This document shows positions 16,504 through 19,214 of a stretch of 39,187 nt of DNA, in pieces. The notes beneath the pieces are model-generated. The model was not told the DNA's origin. It saw nothing but the letters and a program-made list of their open reading frames with translations, and did no database searches. Made by a program: the position numbers and the translations under genes. Position 1 is the stretch's first letter. Each line of letters begins with the position of its first letter. Location: UHGV virus genome UHGV-0864147. One strand, given 5' to 3'. This DNA comes from a virus.

Positions 16504-19110
16504 TTATTTCCTGCAAACTCCAGATGATGTTAATCCATCAAAAATAACCTGCACTCTGGCAATAACAACATCAACTCCAGAAGTCGTTTCACTTGCATAA
16601 CCAAGTTTTATTTTAGATACAATATCCTGAGTAAGTTCAGATATTTCAGTTTCTGCAATGTTACCAGAGGCCATGTGATTATCGTATGCCATAGAATGAA
16701 TTCCATTATTGACATCGATTGAACTAGTATGTTTGTGAAAAATAGATGGGTTTACCTGAAACGAATTTGAACCGATAAGATCAGAAGATACTCCATTCAT
16801 CACTGCAGTACAGCGTGGAATATTATTATCGGTTATTGTCATATGCAGACGGTTACCAGTTAACCCCTCACCAAGTGTGACATAATACGCCAATTCTCCA
16901 CCTGCATATTGTTTCCCCTCAACAATAACAGTAATCCCTCTTAATTTCTGATTAGCTAGCAAAAACTTATTACTGTCTATATAGCATTTATTTGCGGAAC
17001 CAAAAACAGCCCCTTCTAAAATATCTGATGAATAGGAATAAATAAGGTCACCTGAAACAAAGGAAAGAATATCAGATACGTTTCCTTTTTTAGATAAGTT
17101 GGGAGAATAGCTATTAACTATTTCATATTGTCCTGTGATAAAATCAAGGTAAACGCCATCAGTTTTCATCTCTTTAAAGAAAATGCTATTAAAGCATCCA
17201 TCAAGAACCGGTGGATATATTCTAGAGCTTGCATAAGCTGTTGGGTGATTCTTATTATTACCACTACCAGGCGAATAAACATCTTCGTTAGTCATTGACT
17301 TTTTAAGCTTAACAGGAATCATCGGCTGCATATCAATTTTGCAGTTCCCTGAACCACCGATGCGAGGATAAAATAAACCACCAAACCTTACAATATTACT
17401 ACTGAATAGTATTTCGTTATCGTTAAGTGTTATCTCAACGAAGTTTCCAATAAGTTTAAATTCAACTGAAAACAAACCAAGTGGAGCAGATAATTTAACA
17501 ATATTGCGCATAAAAACACCTACAGTCCCTGTTGATGCAGTATAGTGTGTGGTTTCAAAGGCAGAGCCTGTATATTTCAAGTTAATGAAATTATTATGGT
17601 ATGAAGACAATTGGAATTGAATCCCAGAACTAAGGATTTCAATATCTACAAATTGAATCCTTACGGAGTAAGAATATGATAAATCTTCATATTCATAAGG
17701 CAATGTAACATCTTTTGAAATAGTTGCCCTCACATAATTACCAGAAACCACATCAACCCCATCACGTACTGCATTAAAGTAACGATTAAAATCAATAAGC
17801 CCAGCGCCAACATACTGCGCATATGAACGAGTCCATCCTGCCATTGCGTTTCGTCCATTCTGAGCTTCTAAACTGCTAAATTCAGAGTCACTTGTGGTAC
17901 TTGATGGGAGGATATTTGTACAAAAAACAATTTCAGGCATTGAAGTAATATCATTCAGTTCAGCCATCAATTTAAAAAAAGTTTTCTGCGGGAAGTTACC
18001 AACATCCCAACCATCTCCGTCATTCATGCCAAAAGCAATAATAACAACATCAGGGTTAATATCACGAATGTAATCAATCCAGCGTCTGTTCGTGTCTGAA
18101 TACCATGGGTACTGTGAGTTATAAGAAGTAATTGCTGGTGTATCTTTTCCAAGGTCATAGTACCTCATTCCACCAATTGCTCTGTTAAATAAAGTAGAAC
18201 TTGGGAATTTCTCTTGCAAAACTCTCTTAAGATGAGCGGCAAAAATGCTTGATCGATCCACTGTGCTTATATTATATGGGGCACTTAAGCTGTCACCAAC
18301 TAACACTATTTTTGAGTTAGGCCTTGATAATCTCTCAAGTGTTTTAGATGTGACTAAACTGCAGGAATTAATGAACTGAGTACTATTTAGCGTCTGTTCA
18401 AGTGTATCACCAAATCTGGTACCAACGTATGATGATCCGTTGACACTTGCTAGCTTAAGGCATAAATCAGCAGTATCTGTAATTGAAAAAATAGGAACAG
18501 GACGTCCTAAACTGTCATACCCCTGAATTGAGTTTGCCCTAGAAGATGCTGATGCCATTTCGCTTACTATCTCAGGGAAGCGGAGTGTTTTAGATATGTT
18601 GCTGTTAATAACTCCTTTGATAGATGAGTCTGTATATTTCTTCGTGGAAGCGTCCTGAGGAAATAATGGATCATCAAGGTTACGAATACGATTGCCGAGT
18701 GCATCGTAGTAAGTGGCACTAAATGATGGTTTACGAAGAGCCAGCCGAGCCATGCTTTTGACTAACTGGATCAGCATCGTTAGCTTATCAAAAGCATCCT
18801 CATGCACTTCCGCAAAGAACTTACCCTGATTGCGCAGATCAGTTTCCTGTGTAACCGGTAGCTCTCGTGATATAGAAATCTTATAGCCATTGGCCAACGC
18901 CTTCGACAATATTACATTTCCACCATTGTATCCTCCGGCCCCGGTAACTATATAATCAGTATCAAGAGTCAGTACGGTGATATTTTCATGAATATCAACA
19001 ACCTGCACAATCAAATCAGATTTATTGAAAACCCTAAAGGCATACGGAAACGATGTCGTAACGCCGTTACCGGTGTATTCGTTGTGGTCAACTTCGGTTG
19101 AGACCGTCAT
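16504..19110 (-). CDS. tailspike: T7 gp17-like N-terminal adaptor domain plus SGNH/GDSL hydrolase domain
   Basis: 868 aa; N-terminus YTGNGVTTSFPY pattern; internal VLVGDSLSA (block I) and FGMNDG (block III) SGNH motifs; AT-rich. Confidence 0.75.
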   Translation of the reverse strand: MTVSTEVDHNEYTGNGVTTSFPYAFRVFNKSDLIVQVVDIHENITVLTLDTDYIVTGAGGYNGGNVILSKALANGYKISISRELPVTQETDLRNQGKFFAEVHEDAFDKLTMLIQLVKSMARLALRKPSFSATYYDALGNRIRNLDDPLFPQDASTKKYTDSSIKGVINSNISKTLRFPEIVSEMASASSRANSIQGYDSLGRPVPIFSITDTADLCLKLASVNGSSYVGTRFGDTLEQTLNSTQFINSCSLVTSKTLERLSRPNSKIVLVGDSLSAPYNISTVDRSSIFAAHLKRVLQEKFPSSTLFNRAIGGMRYYDLGKDTPAITSYNSQYPWYSDTNRRWIDYIRDINPDVVIIAFGMNDGDGWDVGNFPQKTFFKLMAELNDITSMPEIVFCTNILPSSTTSDSEFSSLEAQNGRNAMAGWTRSYAQYVGAGLIDFNRYFNAVRDGVDVVSGNYVRATISKDVTLPYEYEDLSYSYSVRIQFVDIEILSSGIQFQLSSYHNNFINLKYTGSAFETTHYTASTGTVGVFMRNIVKLSAPLGLFSVEFKLIGNFVEITLNDNEILFSSNIVRFGGLFYPRIGGSGNCKIDMQPMIPVKLKKSMTNEDVYSPGSGNNKNHPTAYASSRIYPPVLDGCFNSIFFKEMKTDGVYLDFITGQYEIVNSYSPNLSKKGNVSDILSFVSGDLIYSYSSDILEGAVFGSANKCYIDSNKFLLANQKLRGITVIVEGKQYAGGELAYYVTLGEGLTGNRLHMTITDNNIPRCTAVMNGVSSDLIGSNSFQVNPSIFHKHTSSIDVNNGIHSMAYDNHMASGNIAETEISELTQDIVSKIKLGYASETTSGVDVVIARVQVIFDGLTSSGVCRK

Positions 19111-19214
19111 GTTAAATCTCCAGATAGTCGCAGCACCCGTTGCGCCGCATATCTGGTTATTCTATTACCTGAAAAACCATATATGTATAGAAAGACTATA
19201 AATACCAATAGATA

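Follow-up and report, generated by a model that had tools for sequence, protein, structure and literature searches.

The gene at positions 16504..19110 of the window, the 39,187-nucleotide stretch of virus genome UHGV-0864147 that was analysed, very probably encodes the single tailspike (receptor-binding protein) of a temperate Escherichia coli podovirus of the phiV10/epsilon15 kind, with a head that appears to be an SGNH carbohydrate O-acetylesterase. The gene lies on the minus strand, as do all features given below, and consists of 868 codons and a stop in the list of open reading frames. A GGAG ribosome-binding site can be read directly from the sequence 8 nt 5' of the ATG start (19118..19121), while a scan for promoters and terminators gave no signal better than that of shuffled sequence. 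The 868-aa product is identical to RefSeq WP_021523201.1. An identical CDS is annotated in 37 complete E. coli genomes, where its RefSeq name is already SGNH/GDSL hydrolase, and spikes of this type are already known. A PHROG profile search matched phrog_17220 over the full length of the protein. The gene order of the window and of a second locus shows the spike flanked by the injection-protein genes on one side and the lysis cassette on the other, as in epsilon15 and phiV10, and in its backbone the phage shares 98.4% identity with phiV10. A phage-encoded O-antigen-modifying gene adjoining the spike, as found in phiV10 and epsilon15, was sought and none was found.

The tailspike begins with a virion-attachment adaptor of the epsilon15 gp20/T7 gp17 N-terminal type (aa 1-165, 18616..19110), followed by a neck or linker (aa 166-259, 18334..18615). 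The adaptor is supported by its identity to epsilon15 (67% between aa 1-234 and the N terminus of the epsilon15 tailspike), by a sequence match to PDB 8ck1/28lx (E 5e-24) and by Foldseek, in which the adaptor model matched the Carin-1 fibre 8ck1 (E 4e-10) and the T7 gp17 N-terminal structures 7boz, 7ey9 and 8dsp (E 1e-4 to 5e-5, probability 1.0). The confident part of the adaptor model spans residues 9-85 only, and the T7 gp17-like fold corresponds to roughly the first 85 residues. Direct comparison with T7 gp17 was not significant, either by BLASTP (E 0.13) or by hhalign (probability 2%), and a fold search and family-level Pfam matches were therefore needed. Phage_T7_tail (PF03906) stayed below its cut-off of 25.2 bits, the full-length protein scoring 14.7 bits and aa 1-246 alone 19.1 bits, but was matched by 15 of 20 homologues with a best E of 1e-9. 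The resemblance to a podovirus fibre-attachment domain proposed in the first-pass annotation is thus weak by sequence (PF03906 sub-threshold) and clear by fold (7boz, E 1e-4). The neck is shared with other epsilon15-like tailspikes up to about aa 234-246, with the epsilon15 alignment stopping at around aa 230-234 and PHROG tail-fibre families covering aa 1 to about 246. The KN1 depolymerase 9m4c matches aa 135-231, and the linker has a low pLDDT in the monomer model. By analogy with epsilon15 gp20 and T7 gp17, the N-terminal ~165 residues would dock a presumably trimeric spike onto the tail.

Beyond the neck, the chain forms an SGNH esterase fold interrupted by a second domain. The first part (aa 260-455, 17746..18333) carries strands 1-5 and blocks I-III, and the last part (aa 606-645, 17176..17295), which was delimited by an in-silico splice test, carries the block V loop and the terminal helix. 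Invariance of the catalytic residues was judged over 30 homologues of 25-45% identity. Block I, VLVGDSLSA (aa 269-277, 18280..18306), contains the predicted nucleophile S274, and its G272, D273 and S274 are invariant. Block II, NRAIGG (aa 309-314, 18169..18186), has invariant N309 and the oxyanion-hole glycine G314, also invariant, and block III, GMND (aa 361-364, 18019..18030), is invariant and includes the oxyanion-hole Asn363. An R-D-G-x-D motif (17752..17766), in which R449, D450, G451 and D453 are invariant, stands directly before the insertion. Block V has the variant form GNNKNHP (17242..17262), with G617, N618, N621 and H622 invariant and H622 as the predicted general base, 258 residues downstream of GMND. 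The assignment of H622 was obtained by deleting the insert in silico, whereupon the Pfam matches reached the ends of their profiles (43.2 to 47.3 and 27.3 to 31.5 bits). The extension was lost when H622 was replaced by Ala, which places the residue at block V.

Pfam Lipase_GDSL_2 (PF13472) matched with an E of 2.4e-9 and 38.4 bits, above its curated cut-off of 32.9. PF00657 reached 23.3 bits for the whole protein, against a cut-off of 23.6, and 27.3-31.5 bits for the isolated or spliced domain. The AF2 model (pLDDT 84, pTM 0.81) contains a three-layer alpha/beta/alpha fold with a five-stranded parallel sheet. Its best structural neighbours are carbohydrate acetylesterases and not lipases: the acetyl-mannan esterase 6hfz (structural figure 16.7), the Ape1 peptidoglycan O-acetylesterases (15.8 and 14.9), an acetyl-xylan esterase (14.5) and the esterase tailspike G7C gp63.1 (13.3). 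A homologue-profile search of PDB sequences returned matches mostly through the homologues' own PF18668 adaptors and said little about the esterase. The GDSL blocks I and III noted earlier in the central region are thus not chance matches, given a Pfam score above cut-off and residues invariant in 30 homologues. The SGNH fold is likewise present in the model, split by a 150-aa beta-sandwich.

This beta-sandwich, of lectin-like (ConA/LamG/galectin) type (aa 456-605, 17296..17745), interrupts the esterase just before block V. A second lectin-like beta-sandwich, identified from the model and its fold matches, forms the C terminus (aa 646-868, 16507..17175). It is all-beta, is modelled with a pLDDT of about 85-95, has galectin/LamG-type fold matches and is kept only in the ~11 closest 50%-identity clusters. 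Both beta-sandwiches most likely bind polysaccharide and set specificity. The model as a whole comprises an alpha/beta domain and two beta-sandwiches without a beta-helix, and neither Beta_helix nor Pectate_lyase was matched in Pfam.

The closest characterised relative is gp66, the tail fibre of the Pectobacterium phage Possum (Cbunavirus), which BLASTP shows to be homologous in its catalytic unit (E 1e-32, 27% identity). The alignment covers 438 columns, including blocks I-V and the insert, and pairs residues 23-413 of the query fragment with residues 415-822 of gp66. The two proteins share the insertion site of the beta-sandwich as well as the motifs GDS, NRAxGG (NRAYGG in gp66), AFGMND, RDGxD (RDGLD) and GNxxNHP (GNGINHP). 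However, gp66 differs at its N terminus, which is PF18668-like and alpha-helical and is attached through a second protein, gp67, and in its C-terminal domain; Possum, moreover, is a lytic N4-like Pectobacterium phage and not a temperate coliphage. Possum gp66 takes the 2-O-acetyl group off the rhamnose of the O-polysaccharide, as shown by NMR (PMC9569702). The split-SGNH module is matched by 287 cluster representatives with an E of 1e-10 or better, in most cases across residues ~25-404 of the fragment.

By this homology and the lack of a beta-helix, the earlier proposal of an esterase rather than a glycosidase is upheld, and the enzyme most likely deacetylates a polysaccharide of the bacterial surface. 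The spike would bind an O-acetylated polysaccharide and remove its acetyl groups while leaving the backbone uncut. Deacetylation may in turn let the spike move reversibly, and possibly processively, toward the outer membrane, as is reportedly the case for G7C gp63.1 and as for Possum gp66. The O antigen, given in the first-pass annotation as one possible substrate, fared less well against host data. One allele (at least 99.5% identical) is found in prophages of O15 strains (at least 5 genomes) and of O102 strains (at least 9), carriers being a minority within both serogroups. The O15 and O102 O-antigen clusters are mutually unrelated, and no acetyltransferase is annotated in the O clusters of one O15 and one O102 carrier, nor was one recognised in the only hypothetical protein that the O102 cluster encodes. 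The host data thus give no support to an acetyl group of the O antigen as the substrate. The attempt to derive the substrate from the host serotype weakened the assignment as an O-antigen deacetylase and named no substrate in its place.

Alternatively, the spike may act on a widely shared O-acetylated glycan, such as enterobacterial common antigen, colanic acid or capsule, and so recognise a 'key polysaccharide' across O serogroups, an idea proposed in PMC10743462. We regard this as possible, though the odds are against it. In addition to the O15 and O102 carriers of one allele and their O clusters without a recognisable acetyltransferase, the hosts possess the colanic acid acetyltransferases WcaB and WcaF, and phage anhysbys, isolated on O-antigen-less K-12, has a homologous head (43% identical). 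However, anhysbys is a large phage, probably with several fibres, and the presence of a prophage is no proof of current susceptibility, since O loci undergo recombination and members of a phylogroup may share the prophage by descent. The genes for O-acetylation can also lie beyond the O cluster. Furthermore, the characterised relatives Possum gp66, G7C gp63.1 and PP99 all act on O-polysaccharide, and identity between homologous heads falls to 40-45%, as would be expected of serotype-specific modules.

The catalytic apparatus itself departs from the canonical SGNH pattern in one respect. The block V Asp is absent: at the position three residues before the His, the 30 homologues have G (22), D (5), N, K or Q (1 each), and the tailspike has N619. 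This leaves either a Ser-His dyad or an alternative acid. S274 would act as nucleophile, G314 and N363 would form the oxyanion hole and H622 would serve as general base, with the dyad alone or a different acid, for instance one of the invariant residues D450 and D453, completing the site; the RDGxD motif is a possible source of the acid. The missing Asp could also be taken as the mark of a catalytically dead binding module, making the spike a lectin-like adhesin for which two lectin-like domains could suffice. This seems very improbable, as all four blocks retain their Ser, Gly, Asn and His without exception in 30 sequences down to 25% identity and also in the active Possum gp66, and SGNH esterases that work with a Ser-His dyad and no Asp are known to be functional. 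A GDSL lipase or phospholipase attacking outer-membrane lipids or lipid A acyl chains to aid tail penetration, as the lipase/acylhydrolase names of the matching Pfam families might suggest, can practically be set aside, given carbohydrate acetylesterases as best structural neighbours, flanking beta-sandwiches of carbohydrate-binding type and a polysaccharide deacetylase, Possum gp66, as nearest characterised homologue. Returning to the tailspike as an active acetylesterase, a bolder version of its function can be considered, although it is rather unlikely: the spike would ignore the O antigen and deacetylate a conserved envelope glycan (enterobacterial common antigen or colanic acid) by non-canonical catalysis, with a lectin domain within block V and an acid from RDGxD. 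If true, one temperate podovirus could lysogenise unrelated O serogroups such as O15 and O102.

Esterase spikes of several other phages offer points of comparison. The G7C gp63.1 esterase tailspike of an Escherichia phage (PDB 4QNL) is an SGNH relative by structure, but no sequence similarity was found by tblastn at E 1e-3 or better, indicating a different SGNH subfamily. It is also attached indirectly, via gp66 of G7C, on an N4-like virion. The epsilon15 gp20 and phiV10 tailspikes (Uetakevirus) have the same genome position and adaptor as the tailspike described here. However, the epsilon15 tailspike has a beta-helix body (Pfam Beta_helix), whereas here the esterase is the main body, and its distal esterase-like region shows chance-level similarity only (E 0.065). 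The title of a 2026 preprint states that an esterase domain protrudes from the epsilon15 spike. Temperate enterobacterial phages commonly carry SGNH receptor-binding proteins, two of which have been established as active esterases by experiment (PMC13123978, PLoS Biol 2026). In Klebsiella prophage proteins of this kind (PMC13123978) and in gp41 of the Acinetobacter phage Aristophanes, which are spikes or fibres of temperate or lytic phages, an SGNH esterase stands in place of a depolymerase, and esterase or deacetylase activity has been demonstrated experimentally (PMC13123978 for Klebsiella). With Aristophanes gp41, treating cells beforehand with the protein was seen to block adsorption. These proteins are likened here by description; they have capsule substrates and other adaptors and accessory domains.

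The tailspike is a mosaic. Its GC content is 0.378, compared to 0.493 for the rest of the window, and GC3 falls from 0.45 in codons 1-115 to 0.24-0.30 (about 0.25) in codons 247-868. The receptor-binding part is unrelated to that of phiV10 despite the near-identical backbone, and homologous heads are found behind at least 4 adaptor types, among them PF18668, PF12571 and PF03906. The AT-richness of the gene had been read in the first-pass annotation as horizontal exchange of the host-range module, a view borne out by the GC3 drop at the adaptor junction, the phiV10 backbone with an unrelated head and the variety of adaptors. The receptor-binding part was probably gained by recombination 3' of the conserved adaptor.

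The scientific novelty of the tailspike is small, as spikes of its kind have been described from coliphage G7C, from phages of Pectobacterium, Acinetobacter and Klebsiella and, going by the preprint title, from epsilon15. Its interest lies in what such spikes can do. Deacetylating spikes give phages a way of crossing the polysaccharide layer other than by depolymerases, and they select different resistance mutants, in which acetylation and not the polymer is lost. The tailspike is present in prophages of clinically important lineages, O102:H6 carriers among them, with ST405 represented among the carriers, and is a candidate reagent to probe the O-acetylation of E. coli surface glycans. On its phiV10-type backbone, the spike is an example of host-range module swapping in Uetakevirus.

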